Position numbers and translations under genes: made by a program. DNA of 64,000 bases from Kiritimatiellia bacterium (GTDB lineage Bacteria; Verrucomicrobiota; Kiritimatiellia; RFP12; DVOR01), in contig JAFXKZ010000002.1 of the NCBI GenBank assembly GCA_017531445.1, positions 9,286-73,285 of the forward strand, given 5' to 3'. Below, one piece after another: positions 46,335 to 59,710 of this stretch (positions are counted from its first letter, which is position 1; every line of letters starts with the position of its first letter). The notes beneath the pieces are model-generated. The model searched no databases. It was not told where the DNA came from and saw only the letters and a list, made by a program, of their open reading frames with translations.

Positions 46335-46418
46335 TGGTGCTCGGGGGGGGACTCGAACCCCCACGGATCTCTCCACATGCACCTCAAGCATGCGTGTATG
46401 CCATTTCACCACCCGAGC
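46335..46418 (-). tRNA. tRNA-Leu (anticodon GAG)
   Basis: 84 nt. Acceptor GCTCGGG/CCCGAGC, anticodon stem CATGC/GCATG with loop TTGAGGT, long variable arm, T-arm GGGGG-TTCGAGT-CCCCC, and an encoded CCA. Confidence 0.9.
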
Positions 46419-52974: not shown

Positions 52975-54870
52975 TCAAAGTGAAAGAATGTAAATTTCAA
53001 GATCGCTCAGTTCCTGTTCGGTTAAGTCCAAAGTTACTCCGTGATATTGCCCTTCGGGATTCCAAGTGGTGAGCACGTCACGAATAGTTTTTGCACGGCC
53101 ATCATAAAGGTAGGGGGCCGTTCTCCAGACTTCTTTCAATGTGGGAACGTCAAATTTCTGTCCTTTTTCGTCTCGCGTCCCCAAGCCGATGTCATACAAA
53201 GGGGCTTCCGAGCCATCGTTGGGGTTTGCCGAAGCCGTGAAGTGAAGTTCGGGCTTATGGCAACGCGCACAGTCTGCTTTATCTGTCCGTTCAAAGATTT
53301 CTTTCCCGCGAGCAATAGCTGCTGCATTTTCCTCGCGTGCCCAAGGTGAAGGTTGCGCTTTCATGTTCATTACATAAGCATCAATGCATTGGGTGTCTTC
53401 TTCGCTGACGGCACAAAATTGAATATGACGGAATCCTGCACGATTACAATGCTTCATATCTTTGCGAATGCCCGTAATCATTGTTGGCGGTGTGACACCG
53501 CTTAGATAGAGCGTCTTACTTTGTTTCGGATTTCCAATGCCGTCATTCAACAAATCCCAGTTCAGCCCGTCAACAATTCCATCCGGATGGCACGAGGCGC
53601 AGCTCTGCCATTGCTGGAAGCACTTGGTGCCGTCATTGAAGAGCATTTCGCCGCGCAATTCCGGATTAGCCTTCAGATCTGCCAGTGCATTTCCATTGAG
53701 AGGCGTTACTTTCGGGCGGATTTGGCGGCGTTCTTTGAATGGGATTTCAACTAATGCATCTGCATAATGACAGACGAGATAAGCGCGATCATTGGTTGCC
53801 ACGATGCCGCGCGGTCCATCGGCTTCAAAGGTAAAGCGACGTCGAATGCCGGTAAGGAATGAAAGATCGTTATGAACTTCCTCTGCAGAGAAAGTGACTT
53901 CGGTGACTTTCTTTCCCGCTGCAGCATCTTCCAATCGGCGATGCATCGCCGCACGATCAATCACACTCACTTCGCGTGTGCCGGCGTGTGTTACAAGGAT
54001 CTGCTCGCCATTCGGTGTAACAGTTACGCCCCATGGATTTGCTGCACCCAGATCAATGTCATCCAAAAGAACGGTGTTGATGTAGGCTCCTGTAGTGCCA
54101 TCGAAGACGGAGAGTGCTGCGGTATTCATCCATCCGCGCTCCAATTGTGTTGTGGGCAATTGATAACGCGCCTGCGTATGGGTAAGATAGATGTGCGCAC
54201 CATCGGGAGAAGCAGCGACACCCCGCACGCCGGTTGAACCATCCGGCAGGTGGATGTGGGCCTTGATGGCAAAGGTCTCTGTCTCAATAACCGTAACTTT
54301 TGCAGCCACGTGTCCGGTTGGTTCGGTGGTGTCATCAGGAAGCATATTGATGACAAAGAGCAACTTCCCATCTTTACCGAGTGCACAGCCATGCGTTTCG
54401 CGGATACATTTGGCTGTATTAAGCAATGTTAATGATTTTGCATCGTATTGCTGCACATTGGCATCAAAGCGGTTGCAAAGGTAAACATAACGCCCATCTG
54501 TCGAAACGATGGGAGCCATCGCTCCGTTCCCTGTTACGACAGAACGTCCGTCAGAACAGAAAAGTCTGCCTTCATTTCCGTCTTCTGCGGTGTAGTAAAT
54601 CGTTCCGTCAGGTGCAACCGCAGCCCCGGTTACCGGAAGTGAAACGCTGTCTTGAAACAACCCAAAGAAGCCTCCCATACGCTTAATCGCAGGAAACGAA
54701 CGCAGAAGAGTGCCATCAAGCGAACGCTCCGAAACGCATCCGGAACGTTTCTCTGCGATAATCAATCGATCTGCATTTGGGGAGAGAGAAATTGTTTCAG
54801 GTGAAAGATACGTCGCTTTTAAGAGCGCGTTCATACTGAAAAAACAGGCAAGCAAGAGTGTACGTTTCAT
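52975..54870 (-). CDS. secreted beta-propeller domain fused to a di-haem cytochrome c peroxidase/MauG-like domain
   Basis: Signal peptide from ATG 54870 (MKRTLLLACFF). The N-terminal ~400 aa carry repeated propeller-like blades. Two CxxCH sites are present (CASCHPDG, CARCHKPE). Confidence 0.8.
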   Translation of the reverse strand: MKRTLLLACFFSMNALLKATYLSPETISLSPNADRLIIAEKRSGCVSERSLDGTLLRSFPAIKRMGGFFGLFQDSVSLPVTGAAVAPDGTIYYTAEDGNEGRLFCSDGRSVVTGNGAMAPIVSTDGRYVYLCNRFDANVQQYDAKSLTLLNTAKCIRETHGCALGKDGKLLFVINMLPDDTTEPTGHVAAKVTVIETETFAIKAHIHLPDGSTGVRGVAASPDGAHIYLTHTQARYQLPTTQLERGWMNTAALSVFDGTTGAYINTVLLDDIDLGAANPWGVTVTPNGEQILVTHAGTREVSVIDRAAMHRRLEDAAAGKKVTEVTFSAEEVHNDLSFLTGIRRRFTFEADGPRGIVATNDRAYLVCHYADALVEIPFKERRQIRPKVTPLNGNALADLKANPELRGEMLFNDGTKCFQQWQSCASCHPDGIVDGLNWDLLNDGIGNPKQSKTLYLSGVTPPTMITGIRKDMKHCNRAGFRHIQFCAVSEEDTQCIDAYVMNMKAQPSPWAREENAAAIARGKEIFERTDKADCARCHKPELHFTASANPNDGSEAPLYDIGLGTRDEKGQKFDVPTLKEVWRTAPYLYDGRAKTIRDVLTTWNPEGQYHGVTLDLTEQELSDLEIYILSL

Positions 54871-55050
54871 TGTCTTGACTCCAAAATAAACCACGTTCAG
54901 TATAACATGTTTCGTGTGTTGCAAAGAGGCAAAATGCAAAATCAAACGCATTGCGTCCTGCAGTAACCAAAACATCACCTTCTTTAGTATAGCACATCAT
55001 TCACTTGAGGATGGGAAGAGGATTGATTTTGGAAAGAAAATCTTTTTTGC

Positions 55051-55077
55051 TTGACTTTATGCGGGGGGGGGTATCAT
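55051..55077 (+). promoter_or_regulatory. candidate promoter of the GTPase cassette with a G9 homopolymer in the spacer
   Basis: TTGACT (55051-55056), 15-nt spacer TTATGC+G9 (G run 55063-55071), TATCAT (55072-55077). Confidence 0.4.
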
Positions 55078-55150
55078 GTTATTAGTGAATACTACAAGTG
55101 GAGTTTGCATACGGCTCTACTTATAAGTCAATGAAGGATGGTTGAATTTT

Positions 55151-56395
55151 ATGGGTAATATTACGTTTTTGGGCGTTGAAGGTTCGGGTAAAACCGTTTT
55201 GACGATGGCATTGGTGAATGCTTTTAAGGCGCATGAACATGAAGGGTGGTTCTTACGTCCTGAAACGCGTGGTGCTTTTCGCTTTTTGGAACAGGACCCT
55301 TCGGAATTAAAAGAAGGAATGCTTCCGCACCAAACAACTGCCTTGCGCCAATTGGCTTGGAGTGTGGTGAAGGATGGCGAGCATCAGCAGACCTTGGATA
55401 TTTTGGACTATCCTGGTGAAGTCTATCGTCTTGCTTTCTTAAATGCGGAAGATGAAAATGATCCAGACGAATTTCGTGCGCGAGTCCAAGCACATCAAGA
55501 AGAAATTAAGGGATTCTTAGGACACCTGATTCTGTCTGAACATATCTTTGTTCTCTTCAATCTCTCTGATGCGAAGGATTTAGGCTCAAATGATAAAAAT
55601 CTGGATGCCGTATGGGTGACCAATGCGTGCTTAGATTATCTCCATCGATTGCCCCACAAACCACGTATTACCCTGCTTTTGACGCAGATTGATAGGTACG
55701 TGGATTTAGAACAGTGCGAATTTGACCCAAAAGTCTATGTCTCACATCACCTTCCCTTAATCGCCCACAACTTCCCTAATTTAGATGTTTATGCCGTTGC
55801 TGCTTTAGGTGCTGCAGACTCAACATTTGGCATTAATTCTATTCTTGTTCGTTGTTTGTTTAGCACCCCCGTTGTACAAGACGCAATCAATCATGTGAAA
55901 GAATGTCGTCGCAATTTAGAATACGTATTTGATTTAAGCGTTGAGGATGAAGCATTTTGTAGTCAAGTGATGAGTGCAGTTGAAAATCTCTCGTTTGATG
56001 CTCCTCATTGGAAACAGAAATTACCGTGGTTCATCAACGTAAAAGATTTAATTAATTCAACTGGGATGTTAAGCGCGGAGGATTGTCAAGAATGTAAAAC
56101 AATTGTGGATAAATATCGCGCAGTGCTACAAGAGTGTGATGGTAACACTATTGACTATTCATATTTAGCTTCTTTAATGTGTGAGATGGAGGCTAAAAGT
56201 GAAGAGGCTAGCCTGCTAGTGCAGAAGATGTATTCACAATTTCATGTAGCGGCATTAAAAGCTTGTCGGGCGGATCTTGTTATTCAACAAGCAGCTAAAA
56301 TTGAAAAGTGTAAATATTACGCTTCACGAAGCTTTTTAATCGTTTCCGTAATCATTTTACTCGCAACGTGTATCGTTGTTTTTGTTTGTGCGTGA
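55151..56395 (+). CDS. tail-anchored P-loop GTPase (Ras-like/TRAFAC motifs), family unassigned
   Basis: G1 GVEGSGKT, G3 LDILDYPGE, G4-like LLLTQID, a helical Cys-containing middle region, and a C-terminal TM helix FLIVSVIILLATCIVVFV. ATG 55151 follows AAGGA (the ORF track starts at TTG 55142). Confidence 0.7.
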   Translation: MGNITFLGVEGSGKTVLTMALVNAFKAHEHEGWFLRPETRGAFRFLEQDPSELKEGMLPHQTTALRQLAWSVVKDGEHQQTLDILDYPGEVYRLAFLNAEDENDPDEFRARVQAHQEEIKGFLGHLILSEHIFVLFNLSDAKDLGSNDKNLDAVWVTNACLDYLHRLPHKPRITLLLTQIDRYVDLEQCEFDPKVYVSHHLPLIAHNFPNLDVYAVAALGAADSTFGINSILVRCLFSTPVVQDAINHVKECRRNLEYVFDLSVEDEAFCSQVMSAVENLSFDAPHWKQKLPWFINVKDLINSTGMLSAEDCQECKTIVDKYRAVLQECDGNTIDYSYLASLMCEMEAKSEEASLLVQKMYSQFHVAALKACRADLVIQQAAKIEKCKYYASRSFLIVSVIILLATCIVVFVCA

Positions 56396-56405
56396 GGAAT
56401 TAATC

Positions 56406-57164
56406 GTGAAGAATCGCTATTGTAATAGTATCGCAATCCTTTGCTTGTTGGCGAGTGGATATATCGCGTTAGGTGTTTTCCCGAGGCTGCGAGAATATCG
56501 TATTGAAAAGGGATGTGTTGCGTATGTGTATGGAGATTACAAAACTGCTCTAAAATATTGTATTCCAGCAGCGAAACGTGGTCACGTGAAATCGATGGCC
56601 ATTGTGGGTGAATGTTATCGTAATGGTTATGAGGTTGAACAGTCTTATTCAGAGGCGGTGAAGTGGTATCGTAAGGCCGCAGAGCAAGGGCATGCATTGG
56701 CGCAGCTTAATCTTGGCGGGTGCTATGCAGTGGGCTACGGTGTTTCGCAGTCTTGGACAGAGGCAGTGAAGTGGTATCGCAAGTCTGCCGAGCAAGGAGA
56801 TGCGGTAGCGCAGTTTAATCTTGGAGTGTGTTATGCCAAAGGTGATGGTGTTTCGCAGTCTTGGACAGAGGCCGTGAAGTGGCTTCGCAAGTCTGCCGAG
56901 CAAGGAAATGCTGATGCGCAGCTTAATCTTGGTTGGTGTTATGCAGAGGGAAAAGGTGTTTCGCGGTCTCGGACAGAGGCTGTGAAGTGGTATCGCAAGT
57001 CTGCCGAGCAAGGAAATGCATTGGCGCAGTTTAATCTTGGCCGGTGTTATGCCTATGGTAATGGAGTTCGGCAGTCTTGGACAGAGGCTGTGAAGTGGTT
57101 TCGCAAGGCCGCCGAGCAAGGCGATCCGGATGCAAAGGAAGCATTGAAACGATTAGGATACTAA
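56406..57164 (+). CDS. N-terminally membrane-anchored Sel1-repeat (SLR/TPR-like) protein
   Basis: TM helix SIAILCLLASGYIALGVF followed by six 36-aa Sel1 repeats (AVKWYRKSAEQGNAxAQxNLGxCYAxGxGV). GTG 56406 lies 7 nt after a GAGGA that overlaps the GTPase stop. Confidence 0.85.
   Translation: MKNRYCNSIAILCLLASGYIALGVFPRLREYRIEKGCVAYVYGDYKTALKYCIPAAKRGHVKSMAIVGECYRNGYEVEQSYSEAVKWYRKAAEQGHALAQLNLGGCYAVGYGVSQSWTEAVKWYRKSAEQGDAVAQFNLGVCYAKGDGVSQSWTEAVKWLRKSAEQGNADAQLNLGWCYAEGKGVSRSRTEAVKWYRKSAEQGNALAQFNLGRCYAYGNGVRQSWTEAVKWFRKAAEQGDPDAKEALKRLGY
56652..57125 (+). repeat. tandem 108-bp DNA repeats encoding the Sel1 units
   Basis: Units start at 56652, 56760, 56868, 56976 and 57084 (GAGGCnGTGAAGTGG...). 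High nucleotide identity between units. Confidence 0.85.
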
Positions 57165-57274: not shown

Positions 57275-57679
57275 ATGCGGGATACGGCGCAACCGATGGT
57301 GTGGGTGGAGGAGGTTGAGCCGTTACCTTCTTCAAATTTGATGGATGAGTCGTCAGAGATAGAGGAGGCGTTTAGTCGTCCTATTGTGATAGAGGGTGAA
57401 CGTGCGGCGTGTCAGGAGGCGATTCGAAATTTGTCCTTTTGGGCACTCTTTTGTCGACCATGGTCAATACATTGGAAGTGGGTCTTTTGCTTGGGGGCAA
57501 TTGTTTGCATTTTGACTGGTTTATTTGCTTCAAGTGATTTCATTCCGCATGAGATTTACGCCTTCTTGATGGCATTAACGGTGCCGATGACGATGGTGAC
57601 CTTCTTCTGTGAACTGGACGTTACGCGTGCAGTTTCGGGTGGACGGCGGCGATGGTGGCCTTTTTCGGTGGTCTTTTGA
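57275..57679 (+). CDS. N-terminal part of a PrsW-like protease (acidic cytoplasmic head plus TM helices), ending at a frame change
   Basis: ORF 57272..57679. TM segments WVFCLGAIVCILTGLF and YAFLMALTVPMTMVTFF. Terminates 28 nt inside the next ORF in a different frame. Confidence 0.5.
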   Translation: MRDTAQPMVWVEEVEPLPSSNLMDESSEIEEAFSRPIVIEGERAACQEAIRNLSFWALFCRPWSIHWKWVFCLGAIVCILTGLFASSDFIPHEIYAFLMALTVPMTMVTFFCELDVTRAVSGGRRRWWPFSVVF

Positions 57680-58203
57680 CGGTGTCAATCGCTGCGGTTT
57701 TGAATATCGGATTAGAGATAGAGGCGTGGATGGCGGGATTGACGGAAGAGCCGATTAAAGCCATCGCCTTGCTCATCTTAGCGATGTTTCCGCGTCAATT
57801 CCCTGGGATTTTGTCGGGAGTTGCTTTAGGAGTGAGTATCGGCGCAGGCTTTGCAGTGCTTGAAACGTTTGATTATGCGTATGCTTTTGGTGAAGCAGGG
57901 CGGCCGGATACGTTTGTTTTGTTATTGCGCGGTGTTCTCTCACCTTTGATGCATATGGCATGGACGGGGGCATTGGGTGGTGCGATGTGGGCTGCACGCG
58001 GACCACATCGAAGCGGATGGGCGGCACTCTCGTCTTGGCAGTTTTGGGCGGTGTTTGGTGCCATGATTCTTTTCCATTGTATTTGGAATGCGGTGGGCTT
58101 AATCAATTATTTGGCGATTGCCTTATGGAGTATTATCTTCCACTACCTTAAGAAAGGTTTCGCAGAGGTCTCGAATTGGGAATTTGAAGGACGGATTGTG
58201 TAA
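57652..58203 (+). CDS. PrsW-family intramembrane metalloprotease catalytic core
   Basis: EEPIK (EExxK), GFAVLET, HMAWTG and FHCIWN motifs embedded in TM helices, in the same order as in B. subtilis PrsW (EESLK, GFATLEN, SSHAL, LLHGSYD). Confidence 0.7.
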   Translation: MVAFFGGLLTVSIAAVLNIGLEIEAWMAGLTEEPIKAIALLILAMFPRQFPGILSGVALGVSIGAGFAVLETFDYAYAFGEAGRPDTFVLLLRGVLSPLMHMAWTGALGGAMWAARGPHRSGWAALSSWQFWAVFGAMILFHCIWNAVGLINYLAIALWSIIFHYLKKGFAEVSNWEFEGRIV

Positions 58204-58204
58204 C

Positions 58205-59197
58205 ATGATGACATTACCTTTAGCGATTTACACAGCAAATCATGGGTTGGCATGGACTTACCCAAAGCAAGAGATTGGTTTTGCAGAATTGGATTCCTGT
58301 CGTACGGCATTGGCACCTTTGCCTGACTTTGATATGGGTGAGGCGGGTTATGAAGGTGTTTGGGTGACGGCAGAGCGCGTCTTTGCGGTGGTTTGTCAAA
58401 GTGCGCCGAAATGGGGTTTTAGAGGACGTGATGCGACTTATCTTGCGGTCACCTGGATGACGCGTGAAGAGGCGAAGGGGGTTGATTTTGAAGTCCTGCT
58501 TTCTCATCCTGCATTGCGTACCCCCACGAAGAATCCGCCATCGTTTATTGAGGTTCATCAAACGCCATTTAGAAGTTGTCCAATTCAAGAATTGTCAACT
58601 GTGCTCCCCAGTTTTCAGTCAGTTGATGCTTTGATTTCTGCTTTGCCAATGAATCAAACGGCAAAGATTAAACGGATATTGAATATGTCTTCGGTTACCT
58701 GTCGGTATGAAACGATTGGATCGACCGGGTTCCCTCAACAAACGGTATCTCCGGTGTTTTCGCTTCCGGAGCAACCTCCGGAGCCTTCTGTGCCGCGGGA
58801 GGTGTCAAATCCAACGAGGCTTACCCCGGCACCATCGTTGATATCGATGATCCTTTTGATTTTCACACTCATTCTTTTAGGTTTTTCGCTTTTATTGAAT
58901 CTCTATTTGGGATGGGAGTGGCTCAATCAACGGCCGGAATTGAAACGAAACGTTCAGGAAACGATTGAAATGCAAGTGCCGACCGGACAATTGAAACAGA
59001 CAATTTACAGTGTGAAAGAAGCGTTATTTCAAAAGAAGAAGCATACAACAACCAATGAGATCAATACGATTGGTCAACCTCTCTTTGAGACGTCGCTCAA
59101 CGAAGAAGGCTTCCCGGCCGCTCTTTCAGTAACGAATAGCGCAACTATTATTAAAGCAGTTGATATTACAGCAGAAACAACAGAAGAAAAGAGGTAA
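58205..59197 (+). CDS. orphan single-pass membrane protein
   Basis: ATG 58205 lies 1 nt after the PrsW stop. About 210-aa N-terminal globular region, a Pro-rich linker, TM helix LISMILLIFTLILLGFSLLLNLYLGW, and a ~80-aa polar tail. No motif recognised. Confidence 0.6.
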   Translation: MMTLPLAIYTANHGLAWTYPKQEIGFAELDSCRTALAPLPDFDMGEAGYEGVWVTAERVFAVVCQSAPKWGFRGRDATYLAVTWMTREEAKGVDFEVLLSHPALRTPTKNPPSFIEVHQTPFRSCPIQELSTVLPSFQSVDALISALPMNQTAKIKRILNMSSVTCRYETIGSTGFPQQTVSPVFSLPEQPPEPSVPREVSNPTRLTPAPSLISMILLIFTLILLGFSLLLNLYLGWEWLNQRPELKRNVQETIEMQVPTGQLKQTIYSVKEALFQKKKHTTTNEINTIGQPLFETSLNEEGFPAALSVTNSATIIKAVDITAETTEEKR

Positions 59198-59200
59198 ATC

Positions 59201-59710
59201 ATGAACGAAGCCGAAAAATTCCTGCAAGAACACCTTGCGAAAGCGCAACGACCCCAACCCTCTGCGCCACAAGTTCAGACGACACCATTCGCATCAGGGG
59301 CGCAAAATGACAGTGCCGCTGTCGTAGGTAAACAACAGATGGTGTCAATGGGAGAAGCATTCAAACGCTTTTGGGTGAATTGGAGTCTGAATGGACGTTC
59401 ATCGCGTTCCGAATTTTGGTTTGCAGTATTAGCAAATTTTATTTTAGGTTTTCCAATTGGAATTGGAATAGCCGTAATTGGAGTGATTGTTCCTGCACTC
59501 GCAGAAGTGGCAGATATTCTTTTTTCGTTGTTGATATTATGGCCGGGTATTGCTATCGTGGTACGGCGATTACATGATATTGGGAAGTCTGGGTGGTGGT
59601 ATTGGATTTCCCTTATCCCATTTGTAGGATGTTTAATACTTTTGATTTTTATGTGTCGTGCTAGCGAGCCGTATGAAAATCGATATGGGCCAGTGCCGAA
59701 TGTGCGGTGA
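59201..59710 (+). CDS. DUF805 (YhaH/YhaI-like) inner-membrane protein
   Basis: GRSSRSEFW and VRRLHDIGKSGWWYWISLIP signature. ATG lies 3 nt after the preceding stop, with an AAGAGG RBS. Confidence 0.85.
   Translation: MNEAEKFLQEHLAKAQRPQPSAPQVQTTPFASGAQNDSAAVVGKQQMVSMGEAFKRFWVNWSLNGRSSRSEFWFAVLANFILGFPIGIGIAVIGVIVPALAEVADILFSLLILWPGIAIVVRRLHDIGKSGWWYWISLIPFVGCLILLIFMCRASEPYENRYGPVPNVR

Follow-up and report, generated by a model that had tools for sequence, protein, structure and literature searches.

A candidate length-variable G tract in the promoter spacer of a membrane-protein cassette in Candidatus Spyradenecus

Introduction

Upstream of a five-gene cassette in an uncultured gut bacterium lies a run of nine guanine nucleotides, placed between two hexamers that resemble the -35 and -10 boxes of a promoter. 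Does the length of this run set the expression of the genes that follow, and does that length change? The bacterium belongs to Candidatus Spyradenecus, which NCBI places in the Lentisphaerota within the PVC group. Its genome (G000) comprises 1.4 Mb in two contigs and is about 50% complete. The whole stretch of DNA that was analyzed, which we call the window, covers 64,000 nucleotides of it (G000:C2:9286-73285).

Slipped-strand promoter dials are textbook examples for a few pathogens (Neisseria, Treponema and Bordetella). In the poly-C promoters of Bordetella pertussis fim2 and fim3 and the poly-T 'rheostat' of Helicobacter pylori sabA, a homopolymer in or beside the core promoter alters the spacing or phasing of elements, so that surface structures are expressed in a graded or on/off manner. 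There the tract phases an activator site (BvgA) or adjoins the -35 box, rather than lying between -35 and -10. Two other systems have the tract within the spacer. The poly-G run of Neisseria meningitidis porA gives high expression with 11 G, two-fold lower expression with 10 G and 13-fold lower expression with 9 G (PMC3639595). In tp0126 of Treponema pallidum the poly-G run lies between -35 and -10 with an optimum at a 17-nt spacer, and most molecules have 9 G, with a range of 7-11 within one isolate (PMC7864442). The homopolymer in a promoter spacer is thus an established switch, as an earlier sequence-only reading of our locus had held, and the mechanism itself is already known.

The tract lies within the spacer of a predicted promoter

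The sequence cTTGACTttatgcGGGGGGGGGTATCATg holds the two hexamers and the spacer between them. The elements of the region are as follows.

55047 to 55052, plus strand: TTGCTT, a second -35-like hexamer that overlaps TTGACT with a 4-nt offset and may be used
55051 to 55056, plus strand: TTGACT, the -35 hexamer, with 5/6 matches and the same in all four lineages compared
55057 to 55071, plus strand: the 15-nt spacer ttatgcGGGGGGGGG, as read from the sequence
55063 to 55071, plus strand: the G9 homopolymer, the variable element, on the non-template strand and forming the last nine bases of the spacer
55072 to 55077, plus strand: TATCAT, the -10 hexamer, with 5/6 matches and without a TGn extension
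55084, plus strand: A, the predicted transcription start, 7 nt past the -10 box and giving a 67-nt leader
55088 to 55093, plus strand: AATACT, a putative alternative -10 box

On re-reading, the coordinates that had been given for TTGACT, the 15-nt spacer, G9 and TATCAT are all correct, and the arithmetic by which two extra G would create a 17-nt spacer holds. The two hexamers form the top sigma-70-like pair (10/12) on the plus strand of the 281-nt intergenic region, in a scan of hexamer pairs that allowed spacers of 14-20 nt. A standard promoter scan missed TTGACT-15-TATCAT because it demands a spacer of 16-18 nt. The pair is the only good predicted promoter for the cassette, so that the tract would indeed lie in a promoter spacer, as had been claimed. 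The first ATG, at 55151, is 74 nt past TATCAT and is preceded by AAGGA at 55134-55138. The distance from the second -35-like hexamer to the -10 box is 19 nt with G9. The run is of a slippage-prone length (about 8 or more G/C).

Long G and C runs are in excess in the source genome

If tracts such as this one are simply the tail of a distribution, their number should follow from that of shorter runs. In G000 the G/C runs of length 5, 6, 7 and 8 number 1197, 184, 33 and 6 respectively, falling about 0.17-fold per added base. Past length 8 the counts rise, with eight runs of length 9, one of 10 and one of 11. There are therefore ten runs of 9 or longer compared with 1.2 expected, an approximately 8-fold excess (Poisson P = 8e-7). 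These within-genome counts are partial because G000 is only half complete. Runs of length 9 or more lie between hexamer pairs scoring at least 10/12 in 4/10 cases, against 0/39 for runs of 7-8 (Fisher P = 0.001). The four are the following.

G000 C1:34084: TTGACA-17-TATACT with G11, MBOAT acyltransferase downstream
G000 C2:338980: TTGACT-16-TAGTAT with G10, YccF-like protein downstream
G000 C2:2141: TTGACA-15-TATACT with C9, Zn-ribbon membrane protein downstream
G000, window locus: TTGACT-15-TATCAT with G9, GTPase cassette downstream

Elsewhere in the window a single G/C run has 8 or more bases, a G8 at 46343-46350. It is structural and not regulatory, being part of a tRNA-Leu(GAG) gene (46335-46418, minus strand).

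A class of G-tract promoters in Spyradenecus

The layout at the cassette recurs throughout the genus. The pattern TTGACW-N0-8-G(8+)-N0-8-TANNNT is found at 81 distinct sites in 20/28 Candidatus Spyradenecus genomes, with a maximum of 14 per genome, and the reversed-pattern control gave no sites in the same 28 genomes. The commonest form has TTGACW, 4 nt, G9 or G10, TGG and then TAnnnT. Four nucleotides separate TTGACW from the run in 46/81 sites; TGG follows the run in 28/81, and TGn, an extended -10 box, stands before the -10 in 41/81. Spacer lengths peak at 16-17 nt (10 sites with 15 nt, 20 with 16, 24 with 17 and 7 with 18). Among the canonical promoters, with N4 before the run and TGG after it, four have G8, fifteen G9, fifteen G10 and one G11, which reads as a plus-or-minus-1 spread around an optimum. 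Over the whole class the tract ranges from G8 to G14.

The genes that follow are largely those expected at the cell surface or of contingency loci. At 30 sampled sites there are 11 PEP-CTERM genes and about seven genes for giant adhesin-like proteins with signal peptides, together with genes for lipoproteins, a vWA protein, an SPFH protein and an MBOAT protein. All six PEP-CTERM candidates that we compared with TIGR02595 passed, five of them after sampled sites and one after a C-tract promoter in G000.

In a phylum sample of 301 genomes the matches concentrate in Spyradenecus (12/13) and in one family of the same order, where a run of G11-G18 fills the spacer; the control gave one match in total. 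Each Spyradenecus genome has from 3 to 62 runs of G9 or longer. An unbiased sample of 40 of the 46 G(9+) runs in one of them (G009) placed about 14 in promoter-like spacers, by our reading, and some of these have another layout, with the run immediately after the -35 box. The genus is not one without mismatch repair, an explanation that we rejected since MutS was found in 26/28 genomes; there is thus no sign of a mutator background.

As the tract in the window is one of about 80 G-tract promoters of the genus, it is probably an expression dial tuned by slippage. The explanation that we favor, and consider moderately probable, is that G9 is the length-variable spacer of a sigma-70-type promoter driving the five-gene membrane cassette, with the dial now at a low setting. 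TTGACT and TATCAT would drive the genes for the GTPase, the Sel1-repeat protein, PrsW, the 330-aa protein and the DUF805 protein. The promoter would be a member of the stereotyped class of Spyradenecus and its neighboring family (TTGACW, about 4 nt, G9-10, often TGn, and TAnnnT). With nine G the spacer would measure 15 nt if counted from TTGACT and 19 nt if counted from TTGCTT; both lengths should be poor and would give the low setting. Slippage to G10-12 would create spacers of 16-18 nt from TTGACT, and slippage to G6-8 would create the same distances from TTGCTT, so that expression could rise in either direction. Without a TGn extension at TATCAT, the dependence on -35 spacing should exceed that of the canonical members. 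We infer that the pair is the active promoter, that expression depends on the length of the tract and that the tract switches often and reversibly here.

The cassette and its neighbor

The genes around the tract are as follows.

52975 to 54870, minus strand: divergent neighbor with its own promoters, a secreted beta-propeller and di-haem cytochrome c peroxidase-like protein
55151 to 56395, plus strand: first gene of the cassette, for a P-loop NTPase of 414 aa that has a membrane helix at its C terminus
56406 to 57164, plus strand: second cassette gene, a Sel1-repeat protein
57275 to 58203, plus strand: gene for an intramembrane protease of the PrsW family, split by the loss of 1 nt
58205 to 59197, plus strand: 330-aa membrane protein without a family assignment
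59201 to 59710, plus strand: last cassette gene, a DUF805 membrane protein, with the convergent purL next

All the products at the locus have membrane helices or Sel1 repeats. The N-terminal P-loop third of the 414-aa NTPase, and that part only, matches DO-GTPase1 and DO-GTPase2 (PF19975/PF19993) at 21.5 and 19.2 bits, below the 27-bit Pfam cut-off. Some of its relatives have a precomputed PF19975 match. We rejected membership of a double-GTPase conflict system for this protein because both scores are under the Pfam gathering threshold. A PDB sequence search with the GTPase gave no meaningful match, and a protein scan of the species-genome contigs found no relative of it. A search of the cassette against PADLOC-DB 2.0 gave no defence-system match, only two weak partial matches (E = 0.0045 and 0.0003). 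With no real match in either PADLOC or the PDB, the suggestion that the locus is a costly accessory or defence module is unsupported as regards defence, and the cassette is better described as a membrane GTPase, Sel1, PrsW and DUF805 set.

The Sel1-repeat protein varies in length among strains, at 252-262, 180 and 144 aa (window 56376-57164, compared with 2756-3298 in L035 and 2789-3223 in L036), which suggests that repeat units have been gained or lost.

Upstream regions of seven more distant GTPase homologues from other species contain a G run in one case only (L005); conservation of the gene family therefore does not extend to the tract. In that closest other-species homologue (G008:C32, 65% identity) the run is a G7 at L005 1397-1403, just after TTGACA and about 100 nt before the start codon.

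Tract length among relatives

Six near-identical assemblies from several projects (L011-L016), which encode an identical GTPase, span the tract, and all six have G9. Three further lineages are syntenic with the window and share the peroxidase-like neighbor. L035, whose GTPase is 93% identical, also has G9. L036, again with a GTPase that is 93% identical, has G6 followed by TATTAT. In L041 (GTPase 74% identical) a 14-nt deletion has removed seven G together with TATCATG, leaving GG. When the four lineages are aligned over 171 bases, indels occur at the tract only (G9, G9, G6 and the 14-nt deletion). The heterogeneity of tract length that had been looked for among relatives is therefore present between lineages, as G6 and the deletion, but G9 is invariant in the six near-identical assemblies and in L035. 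No G10 or G11 allele, or any other plus-or-minus-1 variant, was found at the cassette locus among the assemblies and lineages compared, and scans of JGI metagenomes with flank patterns around the tract gave no match.

By our own reading of the boxes, the altered alleles have the geometry TTGCTT-16-TATTAT for G6 and TTGACT-17-AATACT for the deletion, the latter bringing the putative alternative -10 box to 17 nt from TTGACT. A G6 run would be slow to revert, and so part of the variation may be decay and not switching.

The protease gene is also altered among these lineages. Relative to L035 and L036 the window has GGG in place of GGGG at 57637-57639 (within 57629-57646), which shifts the PrsW frame. 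L035 has lost 1 nt elsewhere in the gene, from a T run, which likewise breaks it; the L036 gene is intact and encodes 309 aa. The broken gene is thus found in precisely the two lineages that have the G9 promoter. These independent frameshifts suggest that the cassette has long been silent or is eroding.

Other tracts of the species provide a second view of variation. Three of the sister promoters are invariant, with G11 before the MBOAT gene in four assemblies, G10 before the YccF gene in one and C9 before the Zn-ribbon gene in three. The promoter of a PEP-CTERM gene at G000:C2:658204, of the form ATAAGTCTTG-Cn-GTAAGTTAT, has C9 in three assemblies and in G000, C10 in SRR13978210 and C8 in SRR17049896. 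All these alleles encode an identical 215-aa protein and their flanks are near-identical. Such tracts therefore shift by plus or minus 1 over short times in this species.

Three further runs in G000 are C9 inside a conserved element, ATAAGTCTTG-C9-GNNACTTATGCTATCC. The copies of ATAAGTCTTG-Cn-GNNACTTATGCTATCC all lie outside the window.

G000:C2:658204-658212
G000:C1:421957-421965
G000:C1:7944-7952
G000:C2:675946

At least two copies precede PEP-CTERM genes. By our reading of the boxes, C9 in this element gives TTGCCC-17-TGcTATCCT. Among copies from different genomes the run takes lengths of C7, C8, C9, C10 and C11, with flanks that are identical and that together make an imperfect inverted repeat on either side of it.

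Two Logan contigs of SRR12529313 (L017 and L030) start inside G tracts with 5-6 G left. We rejected these starts as length heterogeneity, since only 5-6 G fits a drop in coverage better than a length bubble.

The alleles and the broken protease bear on an alternative in which the promoter is a relic, tuned in the past but now fixed and weak at 15 nt, with the cassette silent or decaying and the differences between lineages the result of one-way decay. G9 is the same in seven assemblies, neither G6 nor the 14-nt deletion is easily reversible, PrsW was frameshifted independently in both G9 lineages and is intact in the G6 lineage, and the cassette is accessory, its DNA being matched in only 7/41 related genomes with the source genome counted. 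All of this is as a relic would predict. Yet both altered alleles rebuild a geometry of 16-17 nt instead of destroying it, the genes for the GTPase, the Sel1-repeat protein, the 330-aa protein and the DUF805 protein are still open reading frames, G9 is far beyond the length at which runs are otherwise purged in G000, and a sister tract of the same species differs by plus or minus 1 between identical strains. We consider it unlikely that the promoter is merely a relic. The slippage dial keeps its support in the geometry, the recurrence at 81 sites, the spacers centered on 16-17 nt and the C8/C9/C10 alleles of the sister promoter; the part of the earlier proposal that found no support is variation at this locus itself among close strains, where G9 is invariant at the consensus level and no G10 or G11 was seen.

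A role for the G sequence itself

The same pattern with a C run in place of the G run is found at only 2 sites in the 28 Spyradenecus genomes, and so on the non-template strand G is preferred to C by 81 to 2. Slippage alone does not predict this bias, which therefore leaves room for a sequence-specific role. The run might be recognized as such, by contact with RNA polymerase or sigma or as the site of a regulator that binds G tracts, and its variation in length would then be incidental. Stereotyped placement, with the four nucleotides before the run and the TGG after it, and the confinement of the design to one clade are in keeping with recognition, as is the strand bias. A recognized element should however be of fixed length, whereas G8 to G14 are seen and G9 and G10 are equally frequent in the canonical design. 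Moreover a second promoter family has a C run in the same role, in the sister family of the same order (f6) the run merely fills the spacer, and no candidate binding protein was identified. We give this explanation little chance of being right in place of the length-variable spacer.

Chance co-occurrence, mis-assembly or service to the divergent gene is very improbable and already disfavored: the 15-nt spacing does occur at background frequency for TTGACW-n-TANNNT in G000, but the enrichment statistics and zero-match controls stand against chance, six independent assemblies from ENA and Logan agree on G9 across the tract, and we rejected the divergent gene because TGnTATACT promoters of its own (-10 at 54904-54899 and 54991-54986) lie about 70 to 165 nt from the tract.

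Discussion

Within Spyradenecus, then, the G9 of the window would be a slippage-tuned spacer that belongs to a much larger set, and it can be compared with the known systems. As in porA, a G run in the range of 9-11 stands in the spacer of what is here a predicted sigma-70 promoter; porA controls a surface protein. Switching of porA has been measured in culture and under antibody selection, whereas for the Spyradenecus tract it is proposed from sequence. The targets also differ, a porin in the one case and a five-gene membrane cassette in an uncultured PVC-group gut commensal in the other, and unlike porA the Spyradenecus design occurs at many loci per genome. Treponema pallidum is closer in this last respect, with several genes per genome having promoter poly-G runs (tp0126, tprL and tprE/G/J). 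The T. pallidum cases have mapped starts, fragment-length assays and reporter data; for the Spyradenecus class the evidence is sequence. The members of that class are far more numerous and share a stereotyped flank, with N4 ahead of the run and TGn-TAnnnT behind it.

There is also a likeness to the 'phasomes' of Campylobacter and Neisseria, the sets of contingency genes under repeat control across a genome: G/C tracts of about 8-11 occur by the tens in each genome, those of 9 or more are in excess, and surface or modification genes are associated with them. Tracts in Campylobacter are mostly within reading frames, and to our knowledge Campylobacter lacks MutS and MutL. Many of the Spyradenecus tracts, in contrast, are in promoter spacers, and MutS is present.

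We found no description of slipped-strand promoter dials in the literature on Spyradenecus, Victivallis or the Lentisphaerae/Lentisphaerota, and all that the Akkermansia genome paper mentions are long runs inside genes (PMC3048395). The present analysis adds a clade-wide, stereotyped and strand-biased design, together with the C8/C9/C10 polymorphism in this species. The presence of the design as many as 14 times in a genome before PEP-CTERM and adhesin-like genes implies that these commensals vary their cell surface stochastically. Such variation would bear on strain-level metagenomics, on the targeting of the group by host antibodies and on the availability of phage receptors. It would also be important for annotation, as consensus assemblies may show promoters that are 1-2 nt off, and the genes behind them need not be dead.

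A broader proposal can be put forward tentatively, though we doubt that it will hold in full. The gut Lentisphaeria (Spyradenecus and the neighboring family) may have a dedicated strand-specific module, TTGACW-N4-G9/10-TGn-TAnnnT, with a C-tract variant for some PEP-CTERM genes, that subjects much of the surface proteome sorted by exosortase, along with other envelope genes, to mutational dials. The preference for G would then be a layer beyond slippage, arising from contact with polymerase or a regulator or from asymmetric slippage. Because two -35 boxes overlap at the cassette, G9 would there be a poised trough, and slippage either way would raise expression.

Further G tracts

Matches to CTTGACTTTATGNN-G7 across all species genomes number eight, in unrelated phyla, compared with about four expected by chance on our own estimate. 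Four of the eight run on into a -10-like TAnnnT, three of these as TAT. We regard these matches as suggestive only. Likewise CTTGACTTTATG followed by G8-G13 and a -10-like hexamer occurs in metagenome-assembled genomes of Clostridiales, Lachnospiraceae and Thermodesulfobacteriota (L019, L020, L021 and L022), for example as TTGACT-17-TATTAT with G11 and TTGACT-15-TATGAT with G10, the matches being only about twice as many as chance would give.

Many of the G(9+) runs in G009 are preceded by 'aac' (L076, L079-L081, L084, L089, L095 and L102), and these are probably coding, judging from their sequence. A G9 at G000:C2:483811-483819, outside the window, also belongs to the 'aac'-preceded class. 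At least one 'aac'-preceded G9 lies about 400 nt inside the open reading frame of a 2523-aa surface protein (residues ...ERGGV...), and it is possible that such runs are sites of translational phase variation.
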